Source of the DNA: Escherichia coli | Lineage (GTDB): Bacteria; Pseudomonadota; Gammaproteobacteria; Enterobacterales; Enterobacteriaceae | Assembly (NCBI RefSeq): GCF_030013205.1 | Contig: NZ_CP122648.1 | Length of the DNA: 64,000 nt | Direction: 5' to 3' (one strand) | Shown: positions 20,648-64,000 of the stretch, piece by piece | Layout: every line of letters starts with the position of its first letter | Position numbering within the stretch: the stretch's first letter is position 1 | Made by a program: the position numbers and the translations under genes | Notes under the pieces: generated by a model | The model's input: only the letters and a program-made list of their open reading frames with translations | Told to the model about the DNA's origin: nothing | Databases searched by the model: none

Positions 20648-20654
20648 CATCCAA

Positions 20655-20687: not shown

Positions 20688-20747
20688 CATAATCCCAATG
20701 ATTACTCCCTGACAGGGTTCGTAGGCCACTCAATATCAGGTGCAGTT

Positions 20748-21104: not shown

Positions 21105-21113
21105 GACCGACCT

Positions 21114-21452
21114 CTATTTCCCTGAATTTACGACGAAACTGTTCGAGCGGGCTGAAGCACTCATGCTCATAGCCTTCGCGGAGGTAGATAACCCGTTGTG
21201 TTTCCGGCTCCCAACGAATGACTCTGACGGGTACTCCGTAGTGATCTTTGAACCAGCGGTTAACTTGTCGCAAAGGACTGTCTCCTTCTGCCGGTTGAAA
21301 TCACCCACAGCCCACTCTGCAAAGCTGTGGGTTACAATTTCCCTGTCACCTGGTACATTCACTGCATAGCAATATTCCACCTTCGCTTTTCCACCCGGTA
21401 CAGGAAGCGCAATCAGTTGCGAGCGACGGTAGTGTGTTGTTAAACTGTTCAT
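21114..21452 (-). CDS. Hypothetical phage protein
   Basis: 112-aa ORF; ATGA overlap with the upstream CII-like gene suggests translational coupling. Confidence 0.4.
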
Positions 21453-22018: not shown

Positions 22019-22049
22019 CGTTCTGTGGTTAAAAATTGAAAGTGTTCTG

Positions 22050-22274
22050 CTAATCTTTCGGATAGATATCCGGTCTTAAGTCAGATTTCGTAATTGCACC
22101 TGACGTGCATTGCTCAAGTTTTTTAGCCAGCACAAAACTGGCTTTTTTATAGCCATTGAAAACCAGCCGTAAGTAGCCAGGTGTTGAGCCAACTTTTCCG
22201 GCCAACTCGCCCTGCTGTTCTTTGGTTAAAGAGTCCCAATACGCTTTCATACAATATGTACCTCCGATGTACAT
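22050..22274 (-). CDS. Cro-like / YdaS-family HTH regulator
   Basis: Small ORF divergent from the cI-like repressor; likely true start at MKAYWDSL (22250); HTH-like GSTPGYLRLVFNG segment. Confidence 0.6.
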   Translation of the reverse strand: MYIGGTYCMKAYWDSLTKEQQGELAGKVGSTPGYLRLVFNGYKKASFVLAKKLEQCTSGAITKSDLRPDIYPKD

Positions 22275-22325
22275 ATCACATGATTAAAATGAACCTTCAA
22301 GATACTTGTACCTTAACGGTACAAG
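22258..22325. promoter_or_regulatory. Divergent cI/cro control region with palindromic operator-like sites
   Basis: Perfect palindrome cttgtacc-ttaac-ggtacaag (22305-22325) and tgtacc...gtaca (22258-22274) between the divergent repressor genes. Confidence 0.6.
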
Positions 22326-22340
22326 GGTTTTAATTTCGTT

Positions 22341-23015
22341 ATGAAAACAATCCATGACATCCGGCGGTCTAACGCCAGAAAACTGAGAGATGGTGTTGGC
22401 GGGAATTCTTCCTTTGCCACTATGATTGATCGCGAGCCAACCCAGACCAGCAGGTTTATGGGAGATGGTGCTACTAAAAATATCGGTGACAGCATGGCAC
22501 GACACATCGAAAAATGTTTCGACCTGCCTGTCGGATGGCTCGATCAAGAACACCAGACAACGAACATCACAAAAAAACCTGATGTTTCAATCACTAATAA
22601 ACAAATCACATTAGTCCCTGTCATATCATGGGTACAGGCCGGAGCATGGAAAGAAGTTGGATATTCTGAGGTTGATTTGAGCACAGCAGAAACGTATCCC
22701 TGCCCTGTACCCTGTGGGGAAATGACTTATATCCTGCGGGTGATAGGTGATTCAATGATTGATGAGTACCGCCCGGGAGACATGATTTTTGTCGATCCTG
22801 AAGTACCTGCCTGCCACGGTGACGACGTTATTGCATTGATGCACGATACAGGTGAAACCACCTTCAAAAGGTTGATAGAAGATGGGACACAGCGTTATCT
22901 CAAAGCGTTAAACCCAAACTGGCCTGAGCCTTACATTAAGATCAACGGTAATTGCTCTATAATTGGAACTGTGATTTTCTCAGGAAAACCAAGAAGATAC
23001 AAAATCAAAGCCTAA
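22341..23015 (+). CDS. CI-like phage repressor with LexA/S24 autopeptidase domain
   Basis: 224-aa ORF; N-terminal HTH region and C-terminal S24 domain (GDSM..., TFKRL). Confidence 0.8.
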   Translation: MKTIHDIRRSNARKLRDGVGGNSSFATMIDREPTQTSRFMGDGATKNIGDSMARHIEKCFDLPVGWLDQEHQTTNITKKPDVSITNKQITLVPVISWVQAGAWKEVGYSEVDLSTAETYPCPVPCGEMTYILRVIGDSMIDEYRPGDMIFVDPEVPACHGDDVIALMHDTGETTFKRLIEDGTQRYLKALNPNWPEPYIKINGNCSIIGTVIFSGKPRRYKIKA

Positions 23016-23027
23016 TCAATGTTTATG

Positions 23028-23052
23028 AACCTGCTTCGGCAGGTTTTTTTAT
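23028..23052 (+). terminator. Rho-independent terminator after the cI-like gene
   Basis: aacctgc-ttcg-gcaggtt stem-loop followed by ttttttt. Confidence 0.7.
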
Positions 23053-23054
23053 AC

Positions 23055-23082
23055 TTGACAATGTACCTTTGAGATACATAAT
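23055..23082 (+). promoter_or_regulatory. Candidate early-left (pL-like) sigma70 promoter overlapping tgtacc operator half-sites
   Basis: TTGACA (23055-23060), 16-bp spacer, CATAAT (23077-23082); two atgtacc motifs resembling the cI/cro operator half-sites. Confidence 0.5.
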
Positions 23083-23192
23083 GTACCCAAGAGAAACAAC
23101 AAACAGGCAGGACCCCCACGAAGTATCCGCCTGGGGCATATGAAGTTCAGGATGATTCGTTAGCAACAAAAAAGCGCCCTACAGGACGCTTA

Positions 23193-23204
23193 GCTCTTTA
23201 ACAA
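23193..23204 (+). promoter_or_regulatory. boxA-like element (GCTCTTTAACAA)
   Basis: 12-nt match to the rrn boxA consensus (TGCTCTTTAACAA) about 110 nt downstream of the candidate pL-like promoter. Confidence 0.35.
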
Positions 23205-23229
23205 TCTGGATATCCACAACAGTAGTAAT

Positions 23230-23721
23230 CTACAGATTGCCGTTAAGTTTTCTGGACAACTCCTCAATGGATGGAGGCGATACGTAATCCGGATTTTTAT
23301 TCATCAGAAACTTATTTTCACAGTGGAGGCACCTGCTTTTATGAAAAAGCTCATCTTCGCTAACCGGGAATGGTTGAAGTATCGATACTATCTTTTGTCC
23401 AAAACATTTTGGGCAAAGATGCATGGTTATGCTGCCACCGTTCACGATTACCTCCTTCGAGTATACAAAAGTACCCGACTCAAGTTGGTTAAGGATATAG
23501 CCTTCCGTCTGAGCCTCAAAGTTTTCGAATTCTGCAATTTTAGCTTTGAGAGAAGCATTTATTTCTTGATAAGAGCCCACCAGTTCAACGAGAGACACGC
23601 ATTCGCGCTGAATAGACGCAAGCTTTGAGTTCAGCTCACCAATAGCCGCATTTACTTCAGCTTGAGTTTTTGCCTCGTTCATTAGTTTTGCAATCTGGGC
23701 TGTTTCACGAATAGCCGTCAT
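23230..23721 (-). CDS. Hypothetical coiled-coil protein with C-terminal CxxC...HC zinc-ribbon-like motif
   Basis: ORF 23230-24009; the N-terminal 96 codons look like non-coding read-through, so the probable start is MTAIRETAQ (23721); C-terminus has CPKCFGQ...CLHCEN; oriented antisense to the predicted early-left transcript. Confidence 0.5.
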   Translation of the reverse strand: MTAIRETAQIAKLMNEAKTQAEVNAAIGELNSKLASIQRECVSLVELVGSYQEINASLKAKIAEFENFEAQTEGYILNQLESGTFVYSKEVIVNGGSITMHLCPKCFGQKIVSILQPFPVSEDELFHKSRCLHCENKFLMNKNPDYVSPPSIEELSRKLNGNL

Positions 23722-24030
23722 TGCTGCCGTTAATTCAGCGATCACATTGAATACTCTTATTGTTGTTGGGGATATCCAGATTAACCGAATCCTTGTTGTT
23801 GGGGAATAACCAGGTCCACCTCGCCTGATGTGGCTAAAAGCAGGCACATAACAGCTAAGTATTTTCAACCAGAGAGAATCCTTAGCGTTGTGGTGAATGC
23901 GGCTCAGCGCACGCGGGTTAAGGTTGAGGCTGACAGTCGACCTTCTGTGGATACCCACCCGCCTGGTGTGCAACCTTCGCCAGGCACCGGGAGGCACCCG
24001 GCACCACAACTTTATGCTGTGTGTAGTCCT

Positions 24031-24166
24031 GGCGGTACCAGCTTGTACCCTTGCTTCCGGCTGGTACCGTCCTTTTTACAAAACAGAGAAGAGCATCACC
24101 GGACGACGGGCTCATAACCCAATCCATCCGGGCGGCGGCCACCACAGGTGTTCTTCTCTGTTTTGT
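24031..24166 (+). other. Structured GC-rich non-coding segment: terminator-like hairpin plus U-run followed by a long imperfect hairpin (candidate regulatory RNA or leader)
   Basis: 12-bp stem 24031-24042/24060-24071 followed by ttttt (24073-24077); 16-bp stem 24078-24093/24151-24166 enclosing a GC-rich apical region; no credible ORF. Confidence 0.4.
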
Positions 24167-24214
24167 GGAGAAACTAATCGGCCTTGCAGGGTCGATATGA
24201 TGAGGAGCAGCAAA

Positions 24215-24577
24215 ATGGCTAGCGAACGCAGTACTGATGTGCAGGCATTTATCGGGGAGCTGGACGGCGGCGTATTTGAAACCAAAATCGGCGCAGTTCT
24301 CAGTGAAGTCGCTTCCGGTGTGATGAACACGAAAACCAAAGGTAAGGTCTCACTCAACCTGGAAATCGAACCATTTGATGAGAACCGTGTGAAAATCAAA
24401 CACAAACTCTCATATATTCGCCCGACTAACCGCGGGAAAATTTCCGAAGAAGACACCACCGAAACGCCGATGTATGTCAATCGCGGTGGTCGCCTGACTA
24501 TTCTGCAGGAAGACCAGGGACAATTACTGACTCTTGCCGGTGAACCTGACGGAAAACTCCGCGCAGCAGGTCGTTAA
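24215..24577 (+). CDS. YfdP-like phage protein
   Basis: 120-aa product from MASERSTDVQ with GAGGAG ribosome-binding site; matches the size and sequence I recall for K-12 CPS-53 YfdP. Confidence 0.7.
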   Translation: MASERSTDVQAFIGELDGGVFETKIGAVLSEVASGVMNTKTKGKVSLNLEIEPFDENRVKIKHKLSYIRPTNRGKISEEDTTETPMYVNRGGRLTILQEDQGQLLTLAGEPDGKLRAAGR

Positions 24578-24642
24578 TATCGTTCGTAATAAACTGATTA
24601 TTTATCTCATCACTGAATATCTTTATATAGTGAGGACTTATT

Positions 24643-25467
24643 ATGTCTCAGAACTTAGACGCAACCGCAATTAATCAAATCCATGCCCTTATTTCTGCTC
24701 AGGGTGTTAATGAAATTATCAGTAAGATTGGTGCCGATGCTGTGGCATTGCCTGAGAATTTCCGCATTCATGATCTGGAAAAATTTAATTTAAATCGCTT
24801 CCGTTTCCGTGGTGCACTTTCCACTGCCAGCATCGATGATTTTACCCGTTATTCTAAAGATCTTGCAGATGAAGGCACCCGCTGCTTTATCGATGCCGAT
24901 AATATGCGTGCCGTCAGTGTGCTTAACCTGGGTACTATTGATGAGCCAGGTCACGCAGATAACACTGCCACTCTCAAACTGAAAAAGACAGCACCGTTCT
25001 CTGCTCTGTTGTCTGTTAACGGCGAGCGTAACTCCCAGAAGTCACTGGCAGAATGGATCGAAGACTGGGCCGACTACCTTGTGGGCTTTGATGCTAATGG
25101 TGACGCCATTCAAGCAACAAAAGCGGCTGCGGCAGTCCGTAAAATCACGATTGAAGCAAACCAGACCGCTGATTTTGAAGATAATGACTTCAGCGGCAAA
25201 CGCTCCCTGATGGAGTCTGTCGAAGCGAAGACCAAAGACATTATGCCAGTGGCATTTGAATTTAAATGCGTTCCGTTTGAAGGTCTGAAAGAACGTCCGT
25301 TTAAATTACGCCTCAGCATTATCACTGGCGATCGTCCTGTACTGGTTCTGCGCATTATTCAGCTGGAAGCGGTGCAGGAAGAAATGGCTAACGAATTTCG
25401 TGATCTGCTTGTTGAGAAATTCAAAGACAGCAAAGTAGAAACCTTTATTGGTACTTTCACCGCCTGA
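24643..25467 (+). CDS. YfdQ-like phage protein (DUF2303 family)
   Basis: 274-aa ORF, same length as K-12 YfdQ, directly after the yfdP-like gene. Confidence 0.7.
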
Positions 25468-25594
25468 TTTCATTACTGCAAATGCCCCTGCGGGGGCATT
25501 TATGGAAACGTAATTAACTCAATAATCACCGGATGGTGAGGGCTTCCTTTTACCAGAATTCAGCGCGGTGCAGTGCATATACGTGGAGAACAAA

Positions 25595-26656
25595 ATGTCA
25601 TTTATTAAAACTTTTTCCGGGAAGCATTTTTATTATGACAAGATAAATAAAGACGACATCGATATTAACGATATCGCGGTTTCCCTTTCAAATATCTGTC
25701 GCTTTGCCGGTCATCTTTCGCACTTCTACAGCGTCGCCCAACATGCGGTTCTTTGCAGCCAGCTGGTGCCGCAGGAATTTGCTTTTGAAGCGTTAATGCA
25801 TGATGCAACAGAAGCGTATTGCCAGGACATTCCCGCACCACTGAAACGCCTTCTTCCTGACTATAAACGGATGGAAGAAAAAATAGACGCCGTAATCCGT
25901 GAGAAATACGGGTTATCAACTCAGACAAAGGCAAAGCATCTTGCCATGATAAAGGCCATTCTCCGTGCTGCAGAACGCGACTGGAAGTGGCTGGAAAAAG
26001 CGCCTGTCATCAAGATACCAGCGGTCAGAAACAAGCGAGTCAGATGGCTGGAAAAGGAGGAAGCAAAACGCCTTATTGATGAGTGCCCCGAACCACTGAA
26101 ATCTGTCGTCAAGTTTGCGCTGGCAACTGGTCTGAGAAAGTCGAACATCATAAATCTGGAATGGCAACAAATCGACATGCAGCGACGAGTTGCCTGGGTG
26201 AATCCAGAAGAGAGCAAATCAAACCGCGCCATTGGTGTGGCGCTGAACGATACCGCCTGTAAAGTGTTGCGTGATCAAATAGGCAAGCATCACAAATGGG
26301 TGTTTGTACATACCAAGGCGGCTAAGCGAGCAGATGGAACATCAACGCCTGCGGTCAGGAAGATGCGCATCGACAGCAAGACATCATGGCTATCAGCTTG
26401 TCGTCGTGCAGGAATTGAAGATTTCCGTTTCCATGACCTCAGACACACCTGGGCAAGCTGGCTGATCCAGTCAGGCGTCCCATTATCTGTGCTTCAGGAA
26501 ATGGGCGGATGGGAGTCCATAGAAATGGTTCGTAGGTATGCTCACCTTGCGCCTAATCATTTGACAGAGCATGCAAGGAAAATAGACGACATTTTTGGTG
26601 ATAATGTCCCAAATATGTCCCACTGTGGAATTATGGAGGATATAAAGAAGGCGTAA
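25595..26656 (+). CDS. Chimeric ORF: YfdR-like HD-domain N-terminus fused in frame to a tyrosine-integrase catalytic domain (likely inactive integrase remnant)
   Basis: N-terminal ~105 aa [14 protein letters not shown]...[10 protein letters not shown] (HD motif); C-terminal ~240 aa with integrase signature [11 protein letters not shown]...VRRYAHL, ending 16 nt from the tRNA 3' end; the integrase arm/core-binding N-terminus is absent. Confidence 0.7.
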
Positions 26657-26671
26657 CTGATTGAATTGTAA

Positions 26672-26748
26672 TGGCGCGCCCTGCAGGATTCGAACCTGCG
26701 GCCCACGACTTAGAAGGTCGTTGCTCTATCCAACTGAGCTAAGGGCGC
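26672..26748 (-). tRNA. argU: tRNA-Arg (anticodon UCU)
   Basis: 77-nt sequence whose reverse complement is GCGCCCTTAGCTCAGTTGGATAGAGCAACGACCTTCTAAGTCGTGGGCCGCAGGTTCGAATCCTGCAGGGCGCGCCA; cloverleaf and UCU anticodon readable by eye. Confidence 0.93.
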
Positions 26749-26990
26749 GTTGATACCGCAATGCGGTGTAATCGCGTGAATTATACGGTCAACCCTTGCT
26801 GAGTCAATGGCTTTTGATCTGGTTGCTGAACAAGTGAACGACCGCGTCTGATTTTCTGATTTATTTCGCTATAGCGGCAAACAAACGCACATCGCTGCGC
26901 GTCTGAATCAAGAAAACCCGTATTTTCATGTATCAAAGTACAATTTCCCGCCCTAACGGAAAATTGTCCGATCCAATGAGACTGGTAACT

Positions 26991-39950: not shown

Positions 39951-39969
39951 CCTGGTGCTCATATTCTTA

Positions 39970-40056
39970 CCGGATTCGGCGTGAACGCCTTATCCGGCTT
40001 AACGCTCCGGTACCCATTGTAGGCCTGATAAGACGCGTCAAGCGTCGCATCAGGCA
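39970..40056. repeat. REP/BIME palindromic units
   Basis: Two imperfect palindromes of the gccggataag / gcctgataagacgcg...cgcatcaggc type between convergent purK and ybcF. Confidence 0.75.
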
Positions 40057-40076
40057 CAAATGTCTAATGCCTACGA

Positions 40077-40970
40077 CTACAGCGAAATACAGGTCCCCGC
40101 TTCGCCCGCCAGCGTCTCTTCAATCCGCGATAACGCCCCAATCCACGCAGGTTTGCCACGGCTTCTGACATAGCCACTCACCGCCGTTACCTTCGGCCCC
40201 ATCGAACCATCGGCTTTGGCAAATGGCGCTAACTCATCCGGTGTGGCACGGCGAATGGCGCGTTGCTGCGGCGTTCCCCAGTTTTCATAAACCGCGTCAG
40301 CATCGGTGAGGATCACCAGCCCATCGGCGTTAATCTGCGCAGCGAGCAACGCAGCGGCGAGATCTTTATCAATCACTGCTTCACTCCCTGCCCCGTCTTT
40401 CGTCACAGGCACACCGCCGCCGCCACTGCAAATCACCACATGCCCCTCTTTGAGCAACAACTCAATGGCTTCGCTGTCGAGAATTTTACGCGGTTGCGGA
40501 GACGCCACCACCCGGCGCAAATATTTACCATCACGTTTCATCTGCCAGCCATAAGCCGCTTCCAGTGCCTCTTGTTCTTCTGGCTGATAAACCGGACCGA
40601 TAAACTTCTCTGGCTGCAAAAACGCCGGATCATCAGGCGAAACCTCAATGCGCGTCAGCACCGTCGTGACAGGCGGCATCTGCGGCTGTGCGCTCAAGCT
40701 CTGCGCCAGCATATAGCCAATCATCCCCTGGCTTTCCGCTACCAGCACATCCAGCGGATACGGTTCTACCTCTTTCCACGCCAGATTCTGTAACGCCAGC
40801 AGCCCCACCTGCGGCCCGTTGCCGTGAACAATCGCCAGCCGATAAGAACGGGCCAGGCGCGTCAACGCGGGTACAGCACTGGCAATATTGCGAGATTGAT
40901 TTTCTGCCGTCAGCGCTTCGCCGCGCTGGAGTAAGGCGTTGCCCCCAAGAGCCACAACCAGTGTTTTCAT
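40077..40970 (-). CDS. ybcF: Carbamate kinase-like protein
   Basis: 297-aa [21 protein letters not shown], amino-acid kinase family. Confidence 0.85.
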
Positions 40971-41782
40971 GGTTTTCCTTGTAATAATTGTTGACCAAGC
41001 CAGAACCCCAGCAGCGTATCTGCCCCTGACGTATGCCCCAGCGCCAGCAGCGAATCAATCGCAACAGCGGTACGTTTCGGGCAACTCAGAGCATGGACAA
41101 AGTGCAGGAGTGGCGAGGCGAAATATCCTTGCGCGGCATAACGTAAATAACTGACGCTCACCGCTGTGGTAACGAGTTGAAGATTGTCGGAACAGGCAAA
41201 AAACTGGCGACCGGAGCGCGTATCTAAAGCGCCATAATACCAGGCCGCCAGCAGCATTCCGCTCAGCGTGTCATCATGACTCGGCGTTAATCCCGGACCT
41301 TTGCCCAGCCAGTGCCGCCAGTCGGTCTTCACGCCATTGAGCGCGGCCTGAAAACAGTGGCGAAACTGGCGTAATTCAGCAGGAAGCGGATCGCCTGCCG
41401 CCAACGCCAGTGGCCCGAAAAGCCCGGTTTCCTCCGCGCGTTGCATCCATGCAGCTGCAAGCGGTTGAGGATGCGCAGGCGGCGTAATACGCAGCAAACA
41501 ATAACGCTGTGGCTGTTTAACCGTGAAACGTCCGAGGCGAATCCCTTGTGCCACAACCTGCGGTTGTTCATTGCCGCATAATCCACCGCATAACGCATCG
41601 AATTGCGCGCGGCGAAGCACCCATCCTCCGGGGCCGAAACCACTACCCTGACGATGCAGTGTTAACAATTCACCGCTTTCCGTCATCAGGTTAATCGCCC
41701 GCCGCCACACGCCCGCTAACCGCCAGGACTGGCGATAATTCGGTGCACTACGGCTGGCAAGCAGAGGATGGATGATCGTCAT
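40967..41782 (-). CDS. ylbF: DUF2877 protein; proposed in the literature as an oxamate carbamoyltransferase component
   Basis: 271-aa product from [11 protein letters not shown]; part of the fdrA-ylbE-ylbF-ybcF cluster. Confidence 0.7.
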
Positions 41783-41792
41783 TGTGCGTTCC

Positions 41793-43052
41793 TCAACCAA
41801 TCCCCATGCTTTCAGCCAGTGCTTCCAGCGCCTGTTCAAAGCACGCCAGCGGTGCCCGCACAGTGCCTGCGCCAATCTGCCCGATCCCCGCCTCTTTATG
41901 GGCGATACCGGTATTGATGAGTGGCGTAATGCCGGTTTCTACCACGCGACGAATATCCAGCCCCAGGCACGCGCCCTGAAAATCCCAGCCGGGGATCTGC
42001 AACTGCATATTGCGTTCAAGGAAGATTTCCGCCATCTCTTCAGATACCGCTCTGGCCGCTTCCATGCCACCCGCACCGACAAAGCGCGTTACGCCAGGCG
42101 CTGCGATCATCGCCGCACCTCCGATACCAAAGGTTTCGGTAATTGCGCTATCGCCCATATCCGGGTTCGCCTGCTCCTGCGAGAAACCGGTGAAAAACAG
42201 ACCTTGGGGAGTGTTTACAGGCGCAGTAAACCAGCGTTCGCCCAGCCCGCTGACCCGAATCCCGAACATATTGCCGTTGCGGGTCATAGCCGTGACGATG
42301 CTGCCTGAGCGGATCATCGCGCCAGCATCCATCGCCGCCTTGCAGTAGGCCATCGCGAGGTTGAGGAAGAACTGATCGGTCACGCTGAGGAAATCCATCA
42401 CTTCCGCAATGTGCTGTTTATCATGATCGAGGCGAGCAATTTGTGGGGCCAGCGTACGCATTAACAGTGCTGAGGAAGCAATATTGCGTTGATGGAACTC
42501 ATCGCCCATGGTAATGCCCTGCGCCATCATCGCGGTGAGATCGATACCGCGCTCCATGCGCCCCAGCGCCGCGCTTAATACTGGCATTAACACATCGCGC
42601 ATCCAGCGATGGCGAGTCAGGACATCTTCGCCGTAAGCGCCAAAACGCATCACTTTGCCGATACCTTCGTTGAGGTTGCAGTACGCCCGGTTGCCGTCGG
42701 TCACGTTCTCGACCACCAGCATCGGCATACTGGCAGAAGTAATGCCGCCCATTGGCCCGACGGCATTCACATGGTGACAAGGAATGAAGTTCACTTCCCC
42801 CTGATCCAGCATTGCCAGCGCCTGCGCTTCATCTTTCGCCCAGCCTTCAAACAGACATGCGCCCACACATGCCCCTTTCATGGGTCCGGTCATCTCCTGC
42901 CAGCACATTGGCGGCCCGGCGTGAAGCAGTGTTTTGCCCTCGTTTAGTTCGCTGATAAGTGAAGAAGCCGGTTGCACATCCAGCCAGTGTGGACGAGCAC
43001 GACGAATTTGTTCGATAACCGCAGCATTGGCTTGCGCCACTGATGTAAACAT
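41793..43052 (-). CDS. ylbE: DUF1116 protein YlbE (single intact ORF here)
   Basis: 419-aa ORF between fdrA and ylbF. Confidence 0.75.
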
Positions 43053-43061
43053 GGGAACCCC

Positions 43062-44729
43062 TTATTGCAAACGTTCTAATAAACGAGCCAGTTTTTTATT
43101 GCCGCCGGCGACTGGCGACCATTGGTAATGCACAACCGGTTTGCTGGCGCTTTGTAGCGCCAGCGCAAAGCTGCGTAATCCGATGTTAATCACGGCGACG
43201 TTTTCCAGTAATGACGGTGTGTGTTGCTGTGTGGCAGGCGAGAGCGGATGAATTAACGCTGCCGCCAGCAAGGTGGCTTCCGGCAGCGAACTCACGACCG
43301 CGATCCCCGCATCTTCCAGCGTGGCGATTTGTTGCGAGCGGCATTGCGGGTCACGTTCGGTGCCTGTCACCGTGGCAATGGCATACAGTGGTTGATTGTC
43401 TGGACGCGCGGCACAGGCTTTTTGCCAGGCGCTCACCAGCGAGGCGGCAGGATCGGCAGTCGCACCGAAGCCAATCACGACATCAAGCAGCAACACGCGC
43501 ACTTGCGGTTTAGCGCCGAGATCGGCAATTAACAGGTTGCGTAAGGTCGGGTCGATCATCGGATGGGGACGCCCGACGGTGTAAAAATCATCGCCCAGGT
43601 CGAGGATCTGATGTCCGTCGGCGTCGAGCATCATGCCATGTTGATGGGTATCGTCGGCTTCCACGCCAAGGTGTCCGGCAAGTAATCCCGCCGCTTCAGC
43701 AGCCAGCGTACCGCCGGTATACAAACCGCAAATAAATCCGCTGCTGACAGGTGCTATTGCGTTACGTCGCGCCGTGACGCGTGAAAGCAGGCAAGCCAGG
43801 CGTGCGGCCTCATCAAGCGAGGAGGCAAACCAGACATTCTCGTCGCGGGCCACCGCCGGGGTATAACCTAAAAACAGCGCCACCGTCGGTTTGCCAGTTG
43901 CTTTCATGGCATTAACAATTTTCAGACGCACAGCTTCGGCAGGTGGTTTTGAAACAAATGCCAGCACTTCGCTTTTCTCGTCTGCGCTGAGCATTTCCAG
44001 CGCCGTTAGCGCACTGATGCCGCCCACTTCACGGCTGAGGTCGCGCCCGCCAAGACCAATCGCGTGGGTAATTCCCTCCCCTGCCAGCGCAATCTGTGAG
44101 CACACCTCCTGAATCCCGGTACCGGAAGCGCCAATGACGCCAATGTTGCCTTCCGGCATCACGTTAGCAAAAGCCAGCGGCGTGCCGGCAATCATCGACG
44201 TACCGCAGTCCGGCCCCATCACCAGCAAGCCTTTTTCCCGCGCGCGGGTTTTAAGTTGGATTTCATCTTCCAGCGTGACGTTATCAGAGAACATCATCAC
44301 GTTGAGGTTGCGATCCAGCGCCTGATTCGCCAGCTCCGCCGCATACTCGCCAGCCACTGAAATCAGCGCCAGACTGGCGTCGGGTAATTTCTGACAGGCA
44401 CTGTCCCAGCGACGCACCTGCGTCAACGCCTGGCTGCTGCCTGAACCCTGCGCCAGTTGTTTTAGCGCCTCTTCAAGCTGTTGCATAATCGCCTGCGCGA
44501 TCCCCGCATCCGCCGCTTCGCTACGAATTGCCACGCAAATATCGTTCGGCGTGGCGTTATTAAAATCGTCATGCCAGAAACCTGTGGTATCTAATAACGC
44601 TTTATTGGCGGGCGTACCCATCATTACGGAAACATCATCAACATTTTCTGATTCGCTGAGTTTTCGTGAAATAATCATTAAACTGACCGAATCCTGAAAA
44701 CACCCTTTTTTAATAAAGGCGTGGATCAT
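43062..44729 (-). CDS. fdrA: FdrA (succinyl-CoA synthetase-like fold; proposed oxamate carbamoyltransferase component)
   Basis: 555-aa ORF; CoA-ligase-like fold; conserved position. Confidence 0.8.
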   Translation of the reverse strand: MIHAFIKKGCFQDSVSLMIISRKLSESENVDDVSVMMGTPANKALLDTTGFWHDDFNNATPNDICVAIRSEAADAGIAQAIMQQLEEALKQLAQGSGSSQALTQVRRWDSACQKLPDASLALISVAGEYAAELANQALDRNLNVMMFSDNVTLEDEIQLKTRAREKGLLVMGPDCGTSMIAGTPLAFANVMPEGNIGVIGASGTGIQEVCSQIALAGEGITHAIGLGGRDLSREVGGISALTALEMLSADEKSEVLAFVSKPPAEAVRLKIVNAMKATGKPTVALFLGYTPAVARDENVWFASSLDEAARLACLLSRVTARRNAIAPVSSGFICGLYTGGTLAAEAAGLLAGHLGVEADDTHQHGMMLDADGHQILDLGDDFYTVGRPHPMIDPTLRNLLIADLGAKPQVRVLLLDVVIGFGATADPAASLVSAWQKACAARPDNQPLYAIATVTGTERDPQCRSQQIATLEDAGIAVVSSLPEATLLAAALIHPLSPATQQHTPSLLENVAVINIGLRSFALALQSASKPVVHYQWSPVAGGNKKLARLLERLQ

Positions 44730-45045
44730 AACAACTCCTTAAAAATTGCACCCATGGCAATTGCACGAGCAGTGTTAATGTGGCGATTACGGTATCGATG
44801 ACAACGAGTAAATAAGGTGATGAATATCACACAGGGATTATTAACAAAAGAATTCAAATAACCGCCAGGCTATTACGTGTTATTTTTTAATAAGCGTGGT
44901 TGTTTTAAAAACCAGGTTAAAAGCGAGCGGATTATCAAATAAATTCTAACTATATTTTTTTGCCTGTCTGGATCACATAATCCAGATATTTTCCCTGTAT
45001 GTTAATTGCAGTCATGCTTCACACCGTCGTTAAAAAGGAAGACAG

Positions 45046-46095
45046 ATGAAAATCAGTCGGGAAACACTCCACCAGCTAATCGAGAATAAACTCTGCCAGG
45101 CTGGGTTAAAACGTGAGCACGCTGCAACCGTGGCTGAAGTATTGGTTTACGCCGATGCCAGAGGGATCCACTCTCATGGCGCGGTGCGCGTGGAATACTA
45201 CGCGGAACGCATTTCAAAAGGCGGCACCAACCGCGAACCGGAGTTTCGTCTTGAGGAAACCGGGCCGTGTTCGGCAATTTTACATGCCGACAATGCTGCC
45301 GGACAGGTCGCGGCGAAAATGGGTATGGAACATGCCATCAAAACCGCCCAGCAAAAAGGCGTTGCGGTGGTCGGTATCAGCCGGATGGGTCACAGCGGCG
45401 CAATCTCTTATTTTGTACAGCAGGCAGCTCGCGCCGGGTTAATTGGCATTTCGATGTGCCAGTCCGATCCAATGGTGGTGCCGTTTGGCGGCGCGGAAAT
45501 TTACTACGGTACTAACCCACTGGCCTTTGCCGCGCCGGGAGAAGGCGACGAGATCCTTACCTTTGATATGGCGACTACCGTACAGGCATGGGGAAAAGTG
45601 CTCGACGCCCGCTCGCGTAATATGTCTATCCCGGATACCTGGGCGGTCGATAAAAACGGAGCACCAACAACCGATCCATTTGCAGTTAACGCCCTGCTCC
45701 CTGCCGCCGGACCGAAAGGGTATGGCCTGATGATGATGATTGACGTCCTCTCAGGCGTCTTACTCGGTTTACCGTTCGGGCGACAGGTTAGTTCGATGTA
45801 TGACGATTTACACGCCGGGCGTAATTTGGGGCAATTACATATCGTTATTAACCCGAACTTTTTCTCCTCCAGCGAACTATTCCGTCAACATCTTAGCCAG
45901 ACCATGCGCGAATTAAATGCCATAACCCCCGCGCCCGGTTTTAACCAGGTTTATTATCCCGGACAGGATCAGGATATTAAACAACGCAAAGCCGCCGTCG
46001 AAGGCATCGAAATTGTTGATGATATTTACCAGTATTTAATTTCTGACGCGCTTTATAACACGTCATACGAAACGAAAAATCCCTTTGCGCAATAA
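45046..46095 (+). CDS. allD: Ureidoglycolate dehydrogenase
   Basis: 349-aa Ldh_2-family ORF at the head of allDCE. Confidence 0.88.
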   Translation: MKISRETLHQLIENKLCQAGLKREHAATVAEVLVYADARGIHSHGAVRVEYYAERISKGGTNREPEFRLEETGPCSAILHADNAAGQVAAKMGMEHAIKTAQQKGVAVVGISRMGHSGAISYFVQQAARAGLIGISMCQSDPMVVPFGGAEIYYGTNPLAFAAPGEGDEILTFDMATTVQAWGKVLDARSRNMSIPDTWAVDKNGAPTTDPFAVNALLPAAGPKGYGLMMMIDVLSGVLLGLPFGRQVSSMYDDLHAGRNLGQLHIVINPNFFSSSELFRQHLSQTMRELNAITPAPGFNQVYYPGQDQDIKQRKAAVEGIEIVDDIYQYLISDALYNTSYETKNPFAQ

Positions 46096-46116
46096 TTATT
46101 GAGACAGGACTTTCTT

Positions 46117-47352
46117 ATGATTACACATTTCCGTCAAGCCATAGAAGAAACGCTGCCCTGGCTTTCCTCTTTTGGCGCTGACCCAACGGGTGGGATGACC
46201 CGTTTACTTTATTCGCCGGAATGGCTGGAAACTCAGCAGCAATTTAAAAAAAGAATGGCAGCAAGCGGGCTGGAAACACGTTTCGATGAAGTGGGGAATT
46301 TATATGGTCGCCTGAGTGGCACCGAATATCCACAAGAAGTGGTTCTGAGCGGTTCGCATATCGATACCGTGGTTAACGGCGGTAACCTCGACGGGCAATT
46401 CGGCGCGCTGGCGGCGTGGCTGGCAATTGACTGGCTGAAAACGCAATACGGCGCGCCGTTACGTACGGTCGAAGTGGTGGCGATGGCAGAAGAAGAAGGC
46501 AGCCGCTTCCCGTATGTCTTCTGGGGCAGTAAAAATATCTTTGGGCTGGCGAATCCTGACGACGTGCGGAATATCTGTGATGCCAAAGGAAATAGTTTTG
46601 TCGATGCGATGAAGGCTTGCGGATTTACTCTGCCGAACGCCCCACTAACTCCGCGTCAGGATATTAAAGCCTTTGTTGAACTGCATATTGAACAGGGCTG
46701 TGTGCTGGAAAGCAATGGGCAGTCAATTGGCGTGGTGAATGCAATTGTCGGGCAGCGTCGTTATACGGTGACGCTGAACGGCGAATCAAACCATGCAGGC
46801 ACCACGCCGATGGGTTATCGTCGTGATACGGTTTACGCTTTCAGTCGCATTTGCCATCAGTCTGTCGAAAAAGCGAAAAAGATGGGCGATCCGCTGGTTC
46901 TGACCTTTGGCAAAGTAGAGCCGCGCCCGAATACGGTGAATGTGGTGCCGGGTAAAACCACGTTCACCATTGATTGTCGCCATACCGATGCTGCCGTGCT
47001 GCGCGATTTCACCCAACAGTTAGAAAACGACATGCGGGCGATTTGCGATGAAATGGACATTGGTATTGATATCGATTTATGGATGGACGAAGAACCCGTG
47101 CCGATGAACAAGGAACTGGTCGCCACCCTGACAGAATTGTGTGAACGCGAAAAACTGAATTACCGGGTGATGCACAGTGGTGCCGGGCACGACGCACAAA
47201 TTTTCGCGCCGCGCGTGCCGACCTGCATGATTTTTATCCCCAGCATCAACGGGATCAGCCATAACCCGGCAGAACGCACCAATATTACCGACCTTGCCGA
47301 AGGGGTCAAAACGTTGGCACTCATGCTTTATCAACTTGCCTGGCAGAAATAA
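46117..47352 (+). CDS. allC: Allantoate amidohydrolase
   Basis: 411-aa product from MITHFRQAIEETL; M20 peptidase-family motifs. Confidence 0.88.
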   Translation: MITHFRQAIEETLPWLSSFGADPTGGMTRLLYSPEWLETQQQFKKRMAASGLETRFDEVGNLYGRLSGTEYPQEVVLSGSHIDTVVNGGNLDGQFGALAAWLAIDWLKTQYGAPLRTVEVVAMAEEEGSRFPYVFWGSKNIFGLANPDDVRNICDAKGNSFVDAMKACGFTLPNAPLTPRQDIKAFVELHIEQGCVLESNGQSIGVVNAIVGQRRYTVTLNGESNHAGTTPMGYRRDTVYAFSRICHQSVEKAKKMGDPLVLTFGKVEPRPNTVNVVPGKTTFTIDCRHTDAAVLRDFTQQLENDMRAICDEMDIGIDIDLWMDEEPVPMNKELVATLTELCEREKLNYRVMHSGAGHDAQIFAPRVPTCMIFIPSINGISHNPAERTNITDLAEGVKTLALMLYQLAWQK

Positions 47353-47362
47353 GGAGTTATAA

Positions 47363-48148
47363 ATGGGATATTTAAATAACGTCACCGGTTACCGCGATGA
47401 TTTACTGGCTAACCGTGCGATTGTGAAACACGGTAATTTCGCGCTGCTAACCCCGGACGGTCTGGTAAAAAATATTATTCCGGGCTTTGAAAATTGTGAC
47501 GCGACAATCCTCTCCACGCCAAAGCTGGGTGCCTCTTTTGTTGATTATCTGGTCACACTGCATCAAAACGGTGGCAACCAACAGGGCTTCGGGGGCGAAG
47601 GCATTGAAACGTTCCTGTATGTGATCTCTGGAAATATCACTGCCAAAGCCGAAGGTAAAACATTTGCCTTAAGCGAAGGTGGCTATCTTTATTGCCCACC
47701 AGGCTCCTTAATGACGTTTGTTAACGCCCAGGCCGAAGACAGCCAAATCTTTTTATATAAGCGTCGCTATGTTCCGGTAGAAGGTCATGCGCCGTGGCTG
47801 GTTTCTGGCAATGCCAGCGAACTCGAACGCATTCATTATGAAGGCATGGACGATGTTATTCTGCTGGATTTTCTGCCCAAAGAGTTAGGTTTTGATATGA
47901 ACATGCATATCCTCTCTTTTGCGCCAGGTGCCAGCCACGGTTATATCGAAACTCACGTCCAGGAACACGGTGCCTATATTCTTTCCGGTCAGGGGGTTTA
48001 TAACCTCGACAATAACTGGATCCCGGTGAAAAAAGGCGATTACATCTTTATGGGCGCTTATTCCTTACAGGCCGGTTATGGCGTAGGGCGTGGTGAAGCG
48101 TTTAGTTATATTTACTCAAAAGATTGCAACCGCGACGTTGAGATTTAA
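47363..48148 (+). CDS. allE: (S)-ureidoglycine aminohydrolase (cupin)
   Basis: 261-aa cupin ORF, third gene of allDCE; terminator hairpin at 48193-48219. Confidence 0.85.
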   Translation: MGYLNNVTGYRDDLLANRAIVKHGNFALLTPDGLVKNIIPGFENCDATILSTPKLGASFVDYLVTLHQNGGNQQGFGGEGIETFLYVISGNITAKAEGKTFALSEGGYLYCPPGSLMTFVNAQAEDSQIFLYKRRYVPVEGHAPWLVSGNASELERIHYEGMDDVILLDFLPKELGFDMNMHILSFAPGASHGYIETHVQEHGAYILSGQGVYNLDNNWIPVKKGDYIFMGAYSLQAGYGVGRGEAFSYIYSKDCNRDVEI

Positions 48149-48277
48149 GTCATACCACTCGCCTGATTATTTTTAGCTATGTTGGATTTTGCCACGGTTT
48201 ATACCGTGGCTTTTTTTGCGGTAAATTCAGGTAAAAAACGGATGCGGGATAAAATGCATCCGCTCTAATGGCAAGAG

Positions 48278-52224: not shown

Positions 52225-53679
52225 TTAACCTGTGACTTTTTGTTCTCCTGTTTTTTCTGCTGTAGTACGTTTCTTTAATAAGGCGTAGGCCGCAAAGGCG
52301 ACGATGACGCCGACAAACCATGAAACACGAGATAACGGTTCCATAAAGGGAATAAACTTACCGCCAAGAGATAAAATAACGGCCACCAGAGTTACTGAAA
52401 ACGCAGTGAGGTTAAAACCGTTATCGTAATATTTATAATCGCCAGGTGCGGTGTACAGTTCATCAAGATTAATTTGCCCACGCATCACCACAAAATAATG
52501 CGCCATCATGACACCAATTACCGGACCCAGCATTCCGCCGATAATATCGAGGAACAGATAAATACTGTCCTGATTTTCCATTAATTTCCACGGGCAGATC
52601 AGCAGGCTGATAATACTGGCAATCAGTACGCCGTTTTTATAGGTCAGTTTCGTCGGTGCAATAGCGGCAATCTGATAACCAGCCGGAATAATATTACCGG
52701 TGGCGTTAGTGGAGATAGTCGTCATCAGAATAACCAGTACCGCAAAGAACGAGGCAAACAGGCTATCCCAACGCTGAACAATATCCAGCACGTTCCAGGT
52801 GTCAGCGCCGTAGTGAATACTGGCTCCGGCAATAATACATACCCCGGCGACCGCAAACAGAATATAGGCCACAACTAAACCGAGCGTTTGCCCCAGCGCC
52901 TGCTCACGAAACGAGTGGGCGTTTTGCGTAAAGTCGGATGCGCTCACCGCCGGTGCCGCCCAGACCGCAACTACCGCGTTAATCACCACCAGGAACAAGA
53001 ATCCACTGTTTTCTGCTTTCTGAATACCGCTCGGAATGTAGTCAAAGATTGGACCGAGCCCGACCAGCGAAATCGCCCAAATCGCCATACCGCCGAAAAC
53101 GATATAGATGCACGGGTTAAGAATGGCAGTGAATTTATTTAAAACTTTGCCACCGCCAAAACCTATACCAACGTTGACCAGCCAGAAGAGTAAGAAAGTG
53201 ATTAAGCCCGGTAGAGAAAGGCCTAACAGGGTAAAATCACCACCGAGAGTTAAAAATCCCGGCCAGATTTTGCCAATCAGGATCAAGCAGGCCAGCGATC
53301 CGGCGTAACATTGCAGGCCAAACCACATAATGGCAGCAATCCCGCCTCTTAATAATCCGGGAAACAGTGCACCACGTACGCCATAAGAAGCACGCAGGAT
53401 CATGGCAAAAGGCACTCCGTATTTACTGCCCGCAGCACCGTTTAATACCATTACCGCGGCAATGAAAAAGGCGCTGAGGATAATTGCCAGCATAATACTA
53501 AAGGTAGACAAGCCGAGAATAAAAAAGCCACCGACCATCACATAATTGGGAACGTTATGAACCGAACCCATCCATAAGGTAAAATAGTTAAATGTTTTCC
53601 AGGTCCGCTGGCTTTGCGTTTTCGGCAATAGATCTTCGCTATAGCCGCGTTGCTGGAATAGTTTTCTCTGATGTTCCAT
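52225..53679 (-). CDS. ybbW: Allantoin permease (NCS1 family)
   Basis: 484-aa polytopic ORF upstream of allB. Confidence 0.85.
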   Translation of the reverse strand: MEHQRKLFQQRGYSEDLLPKTQSQRTWKTFNYFTLWMGSVHNVPNYVMVGGFFILGLSTFSIMLAIILSAFFIAAVMVLNGAAGSKYGVPFAMILRASYGVRGALFPGLLRGGIAAIMWFGLQCYAGSLACLILIGKIWPGFLTLGGDFTLLGLSLPGLITFLLFWLVNVGIGFGGGKVLNKFTAILNPCIYIVFGGMAIWAISLVGLGPIFDYIPSGIQKAENSGFLFLVVINAVVAVWAAPAVSASDFTQNAHSFREQALGQTLGLVVAYILFAVAGVCIIAGASIHYGADTWNVLDIVQRWDSLFASFFAVLVILMTTISTNATGNIIPAGYQIAAIAPTKLTYKNGVLIASIISLLICPWKLMENQDSIYLFLDIIGGMLGPVIGVMMAHYFVVMRGQINLDELYTAPGDYKYYDNGFNLTAFSVTLVAVILSLGGKFIPFMEPLSRVSWFVGVIVAFAAYALLKKRTTAEKTGEQKVTG

Positions 53680-61181: not shown

Positions 61182-61260
61182 TGAGGGACGTATTTGTATT
61201 AGTCGCGACTTGATCTGACACATGGCCTTGAAAGGTTGAGAGTTACCGGTTTTGATATGA

Positions 61261-61668
61261 GTGTCGAATCCTTATCCAAAACAAGAGGTAACTCTCATGC
61301 TTCATACTGCCAATCCCGTCATCAAACACAAAGCCGGTTTGCTCAATCTGGCTGAAGAACTCAGCAACGTATCAAAAGCCTGTAAAATCATGGGCGTTTC
61401 GCGTGAAACGTTTTATCGTTACCGCGAACTGGCCGCTGAAGGCGGTGTGGATGCGCAGATTAATCGTAGTCGCCGCGCTCCTAACCTTAAGAACCGTACC
61501 GATGAGGCAACTGAACAGGCTGTTGTTGATTACACCGTCGCTTTCCCGACACATGGTCAGCACCGGGCCAGCAACGAGCTGCGTAAACAGGGGGTTTTTA
61601 TCTCCGACAGTGGTGTCCGTTCTGTCTGGTTACTCCATAACCTTGAGAATCTCAAAAGACGATACTGA
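61261..61668 (+). pseudogene. ylbG: IS481-like transposase N-terminal HTH fragment (ylbG-like)
   Basis: 135-aa ORF with HTH (CKIMGVSRETFYRYRE) typical of IS481-family transposase N-termini but no catalytic domain; perfect 10-bp inverted repeat (61238-61247 / 61287-61296) flanks the probable ATG at 61297. Confidence 0.55.
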
Positions 61669-62182
61669 ACAAATTTTATCAGGTGACGTTCCGTAAAAAG
61701 TTGTATGGAGTTCTCGATGCAGTCGGCGCGACTATCAGTACCCCCGCTGAACCCTGGACTATCGGGCCGCCGTACTGGAGCATGTCACCCTGGCGTGCCG
61801 CTGGTTTTCCGCTAATGGTTTATTTCCTCTTTCTTTCCCGGCGAGAATTTATTTTAATCCGGAAGGATTATTTATTTTCAGATAGGGACTCACATTAAAC
61901 ACGAAACATTTTAATTAATGCATGGCTGAATATGTATTACACAATGTCAGATATCGTAAAAGACCAGTGCAATTCTATGTAAACTCTCTGACTGTTCATT
62001 TTATTTGTTGTTTCAGGGTCGGAACTCACCCTCAATAAACAACTGAATACGAGTAGATATTCATCGTCTGAGCTATATGGCTTTACACAATAGCCGACAT
62101 GTCTTTTCTCAGTCAGGGATTTTACTTTTCCTCACTACGAAGTTGACGACTTCGATATGGGATAGACTCTTAATTCAAGCAA

Positions 62183-62674
62183 TTACTCTGCACAAGCATC
62201 AGGCAATCCAGCTCCAATATTTGTTATAAAATAATGCGTAACATTAATTTCACCAACAAAAAAAAGGTTTACGCTATCCCCTTGCCCTGGTATTTTACCA
62301 TATTTACACCACACTTTTTTTGTATCTGGATCATTCTCTGATACGATTTTCGCCACTTGTTCCCTGGCCCTCACCGTCAATGTTTTCTTAAACCTCCCCC
62401 CATCATCGATTGTTAGGGAAAAATAAGAAAAAAAATAATCATCTTCTACATTTGTGGATATTGATATATCCACCGCTACATGCGAAAAAAAATCTGGGAG
62501 CCATGTAAAAACCCCATCACTTTCTGGTATTGCCATATAGTTTATGTAATGCTTACTTACAAGAGATTCATCTTTGTGTAAATAAAGATAAGTAGTCACG
62601 CATAAAAAAACAACGATTATAATAGCAAAAATAAATATTACCATCTTTGAGATGTTACTTGAGATAGCCAGCAT
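62183..62674 (-). CDS. Membrane-anchored small protein downstream of the Rhs toxin tip; candidate immunity protein
   Basis: 163-aa ORF overlapping the Rhs stop by 20 nt (or starting at 62644); N-terminal TM helix; AT-rich; position equivalent to ybbC in K-12. Confidence 0.5.
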
Positions 62675-64000
62675 CTTGTAAAGCCTTTATCGTTTTTTTA
62701 TGCTCTGGATTAATATAATCAATACATCTATTTGAGCAATCTTGTGTTAATGGACATGTCAACCCATGTTCATTAACAGCCAAGTCTTTTTTATTATCTT
62801 CAATCATCTCAGAATGGGATAACTTTACTTTTCTGCCGTACATACCGAACATATTTAACCCGTAATCTCTAATCTCTTTTTCATAACCCAGCCCTTTCGC
62901 TGATCGGCTAACACCAGCGTCATTTAATTTAGACACTCGACAAAATGCCATACAATGGAAAAATTGATCAGTCCCACCTAAATTTAATCTCTTCATATCA
63001 TCATAAGTATCAGATAATATATCCCATGCTCTTTGATGGTTTAGTTGTTCTTTTTTTCGCATTAACGCTACATCTGCAGGACTTAACCCTAATGGATCAA
63101 TACCATTCACCGGATTCAGCGGATACGCATACAGACTCCATCCCCCCGCCAGCCCAATCGGGTCCTGAGTAATATATCGTCCCAGCAACGGATTGTAGTA
63201 CCGGTTCCGGTTATAATACAGCCCTGACTCCTCATCGTGTTGCTGCCCTGGCAGACGGTACGGCTGGTGCAGGTGATGCGGGTTTTCCTCATTCAGCAGG
63301 TTTCCCCACTCATCATACTCCCCGCTCCACGCCGTATTGCCGTCTTCGCTGATGAGCGCCAGCGGCAGCCCCCGGTGGTCACAGTGATAAAGATGAATTT
63401 TTCGCTCAGGTAAATAAACCGGCTCTATCTGTGCCGCCAGCCGCTCCACCGTCAGCCCGCACTGTGCCAGCCACTGGCGGCTTTCACTGCTCACGCGGTC
63501 TGCCCGGATTTCCCCCTCCAGCCTGTCCAGCAGCCGCACCAGTTCAGCCGGGAACACCACGCCGTGTCCGTCCTCGCTCCCTTCCTGCTGGAGCTTCTCC
63601 GCCAGGCTCCGCCGCTGCGTTTTCTCCCGCTCGCCGTTGTCTGTTTCGATGCGGATGAGCGGTGTGAAGCTTCCCGGCTCGTATACCGTCTGGATACGTG
63701 TGCTGTCGGTCTGCACCGTCGTCAGGTGGTCGCCGTCCCAGCCGTACCACGTCACCTCCGGTTTACGCGACAGCGACATCCACCCCGTCAGGTCACGCTC
63801 CCGCCGCCATACCCGTTTCGCCATTCGCCGTCCCAGCGGGTCGTAAAGGTAGCGGCTCTCGACCAGTGGCTCGCCATGCTGTATCCGCGTATAGAACACC
63901 AGGCGGTGCTGGCTGTCGTAGTGGTAGTGGTGGGTCCGCTCGTCGTCCGTCCGTATCACACCCGCCGGGATGCGGTCCGTCTTCTCCGTCAGTCTGCCGT
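62655..64000 (-). CDS. rhsD: Rhs-family protein, C-terminal part with polymorphic toxin tip (N-terminus lies beyond the window); rhsD locus
   Basis: Open frame to the window edge; canonical main-family core end ([23 protein letters not shown]...[11 protein letters not shown]) followed by a ~143-aa AT-rich tip; position next to ylbG/selU matches rhsD in K-12. Confidence 0.8.

Follow-up and report, generated by a model that had tools for sequence, protein, structure and literature searches.

A standard intact allFGHK operon of Escherichia coli, and evidence that the split ylbE of K-12 is a reference-sequence error

The stretch analyzed here (the window, 64,000 nucleotides of Escherichia coli contig NZ_CP122648.1) contains four minus-strand open reading frames (ORFs) that fill positions 40077-44729 in the ORF listing, in exact agreement with the coordinates given in an earlier note made from the sequence alone (Table 1). 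The identities proposed there, fdrA, ylbE, ylbF, and the carbamate kinase-like ybcF, are borne out by family-profile matches. FdrA matches NCBIfam PRK06091 over its full length (residues 1-555; 1039 bits, cut-off 433), contains the Pfam domains CoA_binding and Ligase_CoA, and is matched in PDB by 3DMY, 'Protein fdrA'. YlbE matches Pfam PF06545, 'Oxamate carbamoyltransferase subunit AllG' (formerly DUF1116; E=8.8e-98), with a homologue of known structure in PDB (3CLQ, E=2e-111), and YlbF matches PF11392, 'Oxamate carbamoyltransferase subunit AllH' (formerly DUF2877; E=1.4e-29). YbcF scores above the cut-offs of both the carbamate kinase equivalog PRK09411 (612 versus 416 bits, E=1e-184) and the arcC equivalog TIGR00746 (422 versus 358 bits). 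The four ORFs are real genes rather than chance ORFs, given these matches and the occurrence of the 4653-bp cluster block in 5,423 of the 5,426 complete E. coli genomes.

Table 1. Features of the allFGHK locus and its surroundings (positions in the window)
Feature	Description	Position	Strand	Remarks
allF (fdrA)	succinyl-CoA-synthetase-alpha-like subunit, oxamic transcarbamylase	43062..44729	-	555 aa, ATG start
allG (ylbE)	oxamic transcarbamylase subunit	41793..43052	-	419 aa, ATG...TGA, internal stops 0
allH (ylbF)	oxamic transcarbamylase subunit	40967..41782	-	271 aa, ATG at 41782
allK (ybcF)	catabolic carbamate kinase	40077..40970	-	297 aa; start overlaps allH stop (ATGA)
allD-allC-allE	enzymes of preceding steps	45046..48148	+	gap-free MG1655 matches, no internal stops; divergent from allFGHK
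allD-allF intergenic region	divergent, 316 bp, with allF promoter	44730..45045	.	same length in MG1655, no indels
AllS fragment	equivalent of K-12 EMSA fragment (-203/-144)	44873-44932	.	position from PMC12535856
ArcA-P fragment	equivalent of K-12 EMSA fragment (-142/-83)	44812-44871	.	position from PMC12535856
allK-purK intergenic region	convergent, REP-like repeats	39951..40076	.	126 bp
G5 run	ylbE nt 252-256	42797..42801	-	G4 at this run in the old K-12 'frameshift'; sequence read directly
ylbE nt 114	codon E38 GAG	42939	-	G in window and MG1655 v3; A in U00096.2 and W3110 records

Along allFGHK the genes are spaced by 9 bp and 10 bp and then overlap by 4 bp (ATGA), in keeping with translational coupling of allK as the fourth cistron, and a Shine-Dalgarno-like sequence lies ahead of each of them. 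A 302-aa reading of allH (40967-41875, from TTG) was rejected as a mechanical extension; the annotated ATG gives the shorter protein, with start and length equal to those in MG1655. The back-to-back allDCE genes were also matched through the annotation of the near-identical genome K_EC180. All 17 allantoin-regulon genes of the window are intact, gap-free, without internal stops, and collinear with MG1655. The allantoin transporter gene allW, frameshifted in K_EC180, the closest genome, was considered as a second lesion of the pathway, but in the window it is intact (484 aa).

The K-12 allFGHK operon (EC 2.1.3.5 and EC 2.7.2.2; Kim & Kim 2022/2024/2025) equals that of the window in gene set, order, and spacings, in gene lengths (1668, 1260, 816, and 894 bp), and in the divergent allD neighbour with its 316-bp promoter region. 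The differences are allelic only: 139 nucleotides, 26 amino acids, eight promoter substitutions, and one REP-like unit fewer in the window. The 139 differences from MG1655 (NC_000913.3, v3) are spread over a collinear alignment of 4653 nt without indels, at 96.1-97.5% nucleotide and 97.98-98.56% protein identity per gene; FdrA, YlbE, YlbF, and YbcF differ at 8, 7, 5, and 6 amino acids, respectively, the non-conservative substitutions including YlbE R50C, YbcF D191K, FdrA Q399L, and FdrA L443P. The gain-of-function variant FdrA D296Y was looked for and rejected, residue 296 being D as in MG1655. The allFGHK genes are evidently under purifying selection (dN/dS versus K-12 of 0.067-0.082 in all four). 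Elsewhere in the species, the cluster is found at 100.0% identity in 17 records and at 99.9% in E. coli 042.

The allD-allF intergenic region is 97.5% identical to that of MG1655, and its eight substitutions are confined to the interval from -195 to -107 relative to the allF ATG, six in the equivalent of the AllS fragment and two in that of the ArcA fragment. In an alignment of eight strains, the window base is common to all six other sampled lineages at five of these positions, and is the most common or tied at the remaining three. The cluster of substitutions was therefore rejected as a strain-specific feature: the central block varies species-wide, and the window appears to carry the species-majority allele, the outlier among the aligned promoters being that of K-12. 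At the other end of the operon, the allK-purK gap is shorter than the 194 bp of MG1655, where one extra repeat unit of ~68 bp is present; a terminator scan of this region detected no canonical intrinsic terminator after allK, only the REP-like repeats.

The earlier note described ylbE as one uninterrupted frame, which is confirmed by the absence of any stop within the ORF, and supposed the MG1655 gene to be interrupted and annotated in two parts. This supposition corresponds to U00096.2 and the W3110 record; NC_000913.3, in contrast, annotates ylbE (b4572) as a single intact CDS of 1260 bp and 419 aa. Nor does an ancestral intact ylbE make this strain notable, since 5,417 of the 5,426 complete E. 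coli genomes, MG1655 included, have the gene at close to its full length (a match over at least 80% of the query). Of the contrary outcome envisaged in the note, an MG1655 ylbE identical and intact, only the second half was found: the alignment with v3 has no indels, but at 97.5% nucleotide identity it contains 32 nucleotide and 7 amino-acid differences.

The pseudogene of U00096.2 and W3110 is the same gene at the same position as in the window, and its neighbours in the W3110 record are identical to their MG1655 v3 counterparts. Both old records have A114 and G4, whereas the window and MG1655 v3 have G114 and G5; the split allele is thus absent from the window. Throughout the cluster, just two changes separate the 2006 W3110 record (AP009048 / NC_007779.1) from MG1655 v3, the base at nt 114 and the one missing G, the latter of which leads to a stop at codon 87 and to a 1259-bp gene annotated as 'frameshifted'. 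The G4/A114 allele occurs in four of 5,417 matching records, W3110, CIT, LIM, and CAR, and the last three carry U00096.2-like coordinates, while the G5 form is present in independent K-12 assemblies (MG1655 resequences, C600, DH5alpha, J53, and BW2952). Both corrections are also published: the insertion of a G at U00096.2 position 547,831 (ylbE nt 253) for MG1655 stocks, and A547694G (A to G at ylbE nt 114) for MG1655 stocks and a W3110 derivative. The paper on the W3110 derivative documents the SNP and not the insertion, because it is restricted to point mutations. A 2012 publication considered the split ylbE to be a probable sequencing error, and U00096.2, where ylbE was annotated as a pseudogene, was superseded by U00096.3 in 2013. 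These observations favour an error in the reference sequence (G4 for G5 plus one silent SNP) over a lesion of K-12, and for W3110 we infer the same origin. In E. coli, K-12 included, ylbE is normally intact.

According to the earlier note, the cluster has been proposed to serve the oxamate branch of allantoin catabolism under anaerobiosis. The assignment holds, and "proposed" is by now too cautious: the function has been demonstrated in K-12, both on purified enzymes and through deletion mutants (PMC11326118, PMC9843812). The oxamic transcarbamylase activity requires three genes (PMC11326118), YbcF (AllK) was established as the catabolic carbamate kinase in 2022 (PMC9843812), and activation of the operon by AllS and ArcA was reported in 2025 (PMC12535856). 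Experiments in K-12 cover regulation, the kinetics of the enzyme, the three-gene requirement, and the activity of the carbamate kinase, as well as co-transcription, which, like the activity of the purified complex, was shown in MG1655. The direction given in the note, from oxamate to carbamoyl phosphate, has to be reversed: oxalurate and Pi yield oxamate plus carbamoyl phosphate, with oxamate a product rather than the substrate. Protein identity of 97.98-98.56%, identical architecture, and purifying selection suggest that function and co-transcription would be the same in the window strain. When cells grow anaerobically and allantoin is the nitrogen source, a single promoter upstream of allF would be activated by AllS and ArcA, and allFGHK would be transcribed from it as one mRNA. 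AllD would oxidize ureidoglycolate to oxalurate, AllF-AllG-AllH would split oxalurate with phosphate into excreted oxamate and carbamoyl phosphate, and AllK would transfer the phosphate of the latter to ADP, yielding ATP, NH3, and CO2. Thus the locus is almost certainly the standard intact allFGHK operon of E. coli, back to back with allDCE in a complete allantoin regulon, with its K-12 function carried over.

The classical transcarbamylases (ATCase PyrBI, OTCase ArgF/ArgI, and YgeW) perform similar chemistry, the transfer of carbamoyl to or from carbamoyl phosphate, but use one or two genes where the AllFGH enzyme uses three (PMC11326118). No match of AllF, AllG, or AllH to the carbamoyl-phosphate- or substrate-binding domains of OTCase/ATCase was found in Pfam and NCBIfam at E<=0.001. 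YbcF catalyzes the same reaction as ArcC of the arginine deiminase pathway; it sits, however, in the allantoin operon and is fed by oxalurate phosphorolysis, whereas ArcC is fed by citrulline phosphorolysis.

Were ylbE truly broken in K-12, the window strain would be notable for an ancestral functional gene and for an oxamate branch missing in K-12. Such a view is in line with the 'frameshifted' label in the W3110 RefSeq record, with the pseudogene annotation in the old U00096.2, and with a 2011 paper in which the NCM3722 allele is said to restore 'an intact ancestral gene'. For MG1655 it is refuted by the intact gene in v3. Moreover, wild-type MG1655 converts 19.5 mM allantoin to 17.7 mM oxamate, and deletion of allG abolishes this production (PMC11326118), so the K-12 gene is functional. 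With none of the four frameshifted records being an independent modern K-12 assembly, and with the frameshift itself termed a probable sequencing error in the literature, a broken K-12 gene seems to us extremely improbable. Equally improbable is the older bioinformatic model of the CanOE 2012 paper, which assigns the oxamate carbamoyltransferase to a single protein, YlbF (or YlbE), and casts FdrA as an oxamate:CoA ligase that removes oxamate. FdrA does match CoA_binding, Ligase_CoA, and the alpha chains of succinyl-CoA synthetase, its residues ~115-290 aligning to these chains within the succinyl-CoA synthetase alpha / ADP-forming acyl-CoA synthetase superfamily. At the same time it remains far under the succinyl-CoA synthetase family cut-offs (52.8 bits versus 336), and experiments on FdrA detected no succinyl-CoA synthetase activity.

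An operon that is intact yet functionally diverged in this lineage, through protein or promoter substitutions, is also unlikely. It could be argued from the 26 amino acid substitutions, some of them non-conservative, and from the location of all eight intergenic substitutions within the AllS and ArcA binding fragments; because of these same differences, quantitative behaviour could deviate from that of K-12. Against functional divergence stand the dN/dS of about 0.08, the outlier position of K-12 itself in the eight-strain promoter alignment, and the identical cluster sequences in many other genomes. Two further readings are given a small chance: that induction of the oxamate branch by allantoin and anaerobiosis in wild E. 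coli differs quantitatively from that in K-12, whose outlier allF promoter is the one behind all published work on regulation, and, separately, that authentic W3110 stocks carry the G4 frameshift.

The literature already describes the operon together with its enzymes and regulation, and an uninterrupted ylbE is what the species normally has. What is gained is a correction: the idea of a K-12 ylbE pseudogene is an apparent artefact of the pre-2013 reference that persists in the W3110 RefSeq record. This has a practical side, as ylbE in W3110 serves, beside other y-genes, as a chromosomal integration site in several metabolic-engineering papers. If the stocks used there carry G5, insertions into ylbE would knock out AllG, a subunit of oxamic transcarbamylase, and would probably be polar on allH and allK; if authentic W3110 carries the G4 frameshift, it would be a natural allG null.

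The earlier note had placed a four-gene cluster, fdrA-ylbE-ylbF-ybcF, with ylbE as one frame, at 40077-44729; the ORFs (allFGHK) were found on the minus strand, these coordinates are exact, and the families match (see table). FdrA corresponds to PRK06091 (1039 bits) and contains the CoA_binding and Ligase_CoA domains; YlbE belongs to PF06545 (E=8.8e-98), whose current Pfam name is 'Oxamate carbamoyltransferase subunit AllG'; YlbF matches PF11392 'AllH' (E=1.4e-29), and YbcF the carbamate kinase equivalog PRK09411 (E=1e-184). All four cistrons are preceded by a Shine-Dalgarno-like sequence, and from fdrA to ybcF they are separated by 9 bp and 10 bp and finally joined by a 4-bp ATGA overlap. The longest ORF for ylbF (40967-41875) begins 31 codons further upstream, with the TTG at 41875, and shares 83 nt with the 3' end of ylbE; since the table's ATG is the MG1655 start and agrees with a published RT-PCR primer, the extended part is probably not translated. 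The window is chromosomal DNA of E. coli, and the whole cluster interval (4653 bp) has a match in 5,423 of the 5,426 complete E. coli genomes, with 100.0% identity to a group of swine isolates and 99.9% to E. coli 042.

Features of the allFGHK cluster in the window, and frameshifted ylbE in database records
Feature	Location	Strand	Description
fdrA (allF)	43062-44729	minus	ORF, 555 aa
ylbE (allG)	41793-43052	minus	ORF, 419 aa, ATG to TGA, no internal stops
ylbF (allH)	40967-41782	minus	271 aa, ATG at 41782
ybcF (allK)	40077-40970	minus	ORF, 297 aa
ylbE G run, GGGGG	42797-42801	minus	sequence read in window
ylbE nt 114 = G	42939	minus	sequence read in window
frameshifted ylbE	NC_007779.1 (fetched locus) 3582-4840		W3110 RefSeq record
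frameshifted ylbE	NZ_CP026028.1 (fetched locus) 1411-2669		among the CIT, LIM and CAR records

The function of the cluster is experimentally established in K-12, and both the gene identities and the pathway assignment agree with the family scans and with the enzyme and mutant work in that strain. The four genes are co-transcribed, and YbcF in purified form acts as a catabolic carbamate kinase (PMC9843812). Wild-type MG1655 converts 19.5 mM allantoin to 17.7 mM oxamate; deletion mutants of allF or allG make no oxamate and that of allH makes 1.2 mM, with the flux going to oxalate instead, and in the triple mutant oxamate is restored only by all three genes together (PMC11326118). Moreover, purified AllF-AllG-AllH is an oxamic transcarbamylase, its Km being 1.3 mM with carbamoyl phosphate and 36.9 mM with oxamate (PMC11326118). 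Thus the wording 'has been proposed' was too weak, given deletion mutants and purified enzymes (PMC11326118, PMC9843812). Physiologically, the first step runs as oxalurate + Pi -> oxamate + carbamoyl phosphate and the next as carbamoyl phosphate + ADP -> ATP + NH3 + CO2; the oxamate-to-carbamoyl-phosphate direction given previously was therefore reversed. In Pfam and NCBIfam scans AllF, AllG and AllH showed no similarity to ATCase/OTCase; FdrA resembles the succinyl-CoA synthetase alpha subunit, yet lacks such activity. The known structures are those of isolated subunits only, 3DMY (FdrA) and 3CLQ (a YlbE homologue).

The contrast drawn earlier with an interrupted ylbE in MG1655 is outdated: the current reference, NC_000913.3, has a single intact 1260-bp CDS (b4572, YP_009029994.1). 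The MG1655 gene is thus intact, as that of the window, but not identical to it, the two being aligned with no indels, 32 nucleotide differences (97.46% identity) and seven amino acid differences; the complete clusters are of equal length and differ by 139 substitutions. The two-part ylbE was found in old records only. In the W3110 RefSeq record the gene is labelled 'frameshifted' (1259 bp) and differs from NC_000913.3 at exactly two points, the remaining cluster being identical: nt 114 reads A where NC_000913.3 has G, a silent change (E38), and the run at nt 252-256 is short by one G, leading to a stop at codon 87. Removal of that G from the window gene in silico gave the identical 86-aa fragment and a 344-codon open stretch.

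The W3110 allele (A114, G4 run) was surveyed by means of a 190-bp probe that contains it; of 5,417 matching records only four have this allele, W3110, CIT, LIM and CAR. Because the coordinates of the last three coincide with those of W3110 and with the published ones of the older MG1655 release U00096.2, they are suggested to be reference-guided consensus assemblies built on the old reference. The one-base-longer ylbE was observed in all independent K-12 assemblies (MG1655 resequences, C600, DH5alpha, J53, ME8067, ER1709 and BW2952). In reads of MG1655 stocks mapped to U00096.2, two changes in ylbE were repeatedly reported, A->G (position 547,694) and +G (position 547,831); the same G insertion was reported for NCM3722, and A547694G was also seen when a derivative of W3110 was resequenced with AP009048 as the reference. 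In 2013, U00096.3 took the place of U00096.2 for the reason that the latter matched no specific isolate. In addition, 5,417 of the 5,426 complete E. coli genomes have a match that covers 80% or more of ylbE, the match was exactly 1260 bp in 59 of 60 records of a spread sample, and all four gene lengths in six lineages fetched for comparison are as in the window. Therefore the intact ylbE is the norm for both the species and K-12 and does not set the window strain apart.

The operon is already known and the intactness of ylbE is ordinary; what remains of value is the clarification of the K-12 pseudogene, which the evidence points to being a record artefact that persists in the W3110 RefSeq entry. 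In W3110-based metabolic engineering, ylbE has served as a chromosomal integration site for expression cassettes (PMC12175537), and further W3110 metabolic-engineering papers mention the gene. Should the intact allele be present in living W3110 stocks, an insertion of this kind inactivates AllG, a subunit of oxamic transcarbamylase, and probably exerts polar effects on allH and allK.

Judging from sequence conservation, the K-12 function of allFGHK would be expected to transfer to the window strain: the four proteins share 97.98-98.56% identity with their characterised K-12 counterparts, dN/dS relative to K-12 is 0.067-0.082 across all four genes, and 17 of 17 allantoin regulon genes (allS, allA, allR, gcl, hyi, glxR, allW, allB, ybbY, glxK, allE, allC, allD and allFGHK) show neither gaps nor internal stops. 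In K_EC180, the closest genome and otherwise nearly identical, the allantoin transporter gene allW is annotated as frameshifted (1454 bp), perhaps owing to an error in the K_EC180 assembly; a second pathway lesion at this gene was ruled out, as allW of the window (52225-53679) is intact at 484 aa. Within the regulon, the allE-glxK spacer has a hit to the Rfam family of STnc480, an enterobacterial sRNA (48155-48221, minus strand, 84.9 bits).

Expression of allFGHK requires anaerobiosis and allantoin as well as two activators, AllS, binding the allF promoter at -203/-144, and ArcA, binding it at -142/-83 (PMC12535856). Compared with K-12, the allD-allF intergenic region (316 bp) is free of indels and has eight substitutions, all eight at -195 to -107, inside the equivalents of the AllS and ArcA EMSA fragments (44812-44932, about 120 bp). 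In an eight-lineage alignment of this spacer the variation of the species sits in a central block, the allD-proximal 116 bp being invariant and the allF-proximal 80 bp or so nearly invariant. At five of the eight substituted positions K-12 stands alone and the six other sampled lineages have the window base; at the other three the window base is the commonest or tied. Hence the window carries the majority allele of the promoter, and K-12 is the outlier. At the other end, the convergent allK-purK spacer (39951-40076) is 126 bp long versus 194 bp in MG1655, which has one additional REP-like repeat unit of about 68 bp; a terminator scan of this spacer detected no canonical intrinsic terminator after allK.

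Several features lie elsewhere in the window. A vgrG-like ORF of 628 aa (2039-3925) overlaps a second one of 1076 aa (3849-7079), which has a zincin-like metallopeptidase toxin domain according to the K_EC180 annotation; K_EC180 lacks 333 bp here (3549-3881), and both genes are flagged as truncated in it. An ISEc1 transposase (7857-8993) follows the 1076-aa ORF. A degraded prophage remnant at 19600-26750, with an integrase fragment, ymfK/L/T-like genes, tail-fibre assembly fragments and an Rfam IS009 match (20745-20944), adjoins tRNA-Arg(tct) (26672-26748, minus strand), the site of DLP12 in K-12. The right end (61200-64000) contains a truncated ylbG, an RHS-element core protein and small downstream ORFs; according to the K_EC180 annotation these are fragments, and the RHS ORF continues past the window edge.
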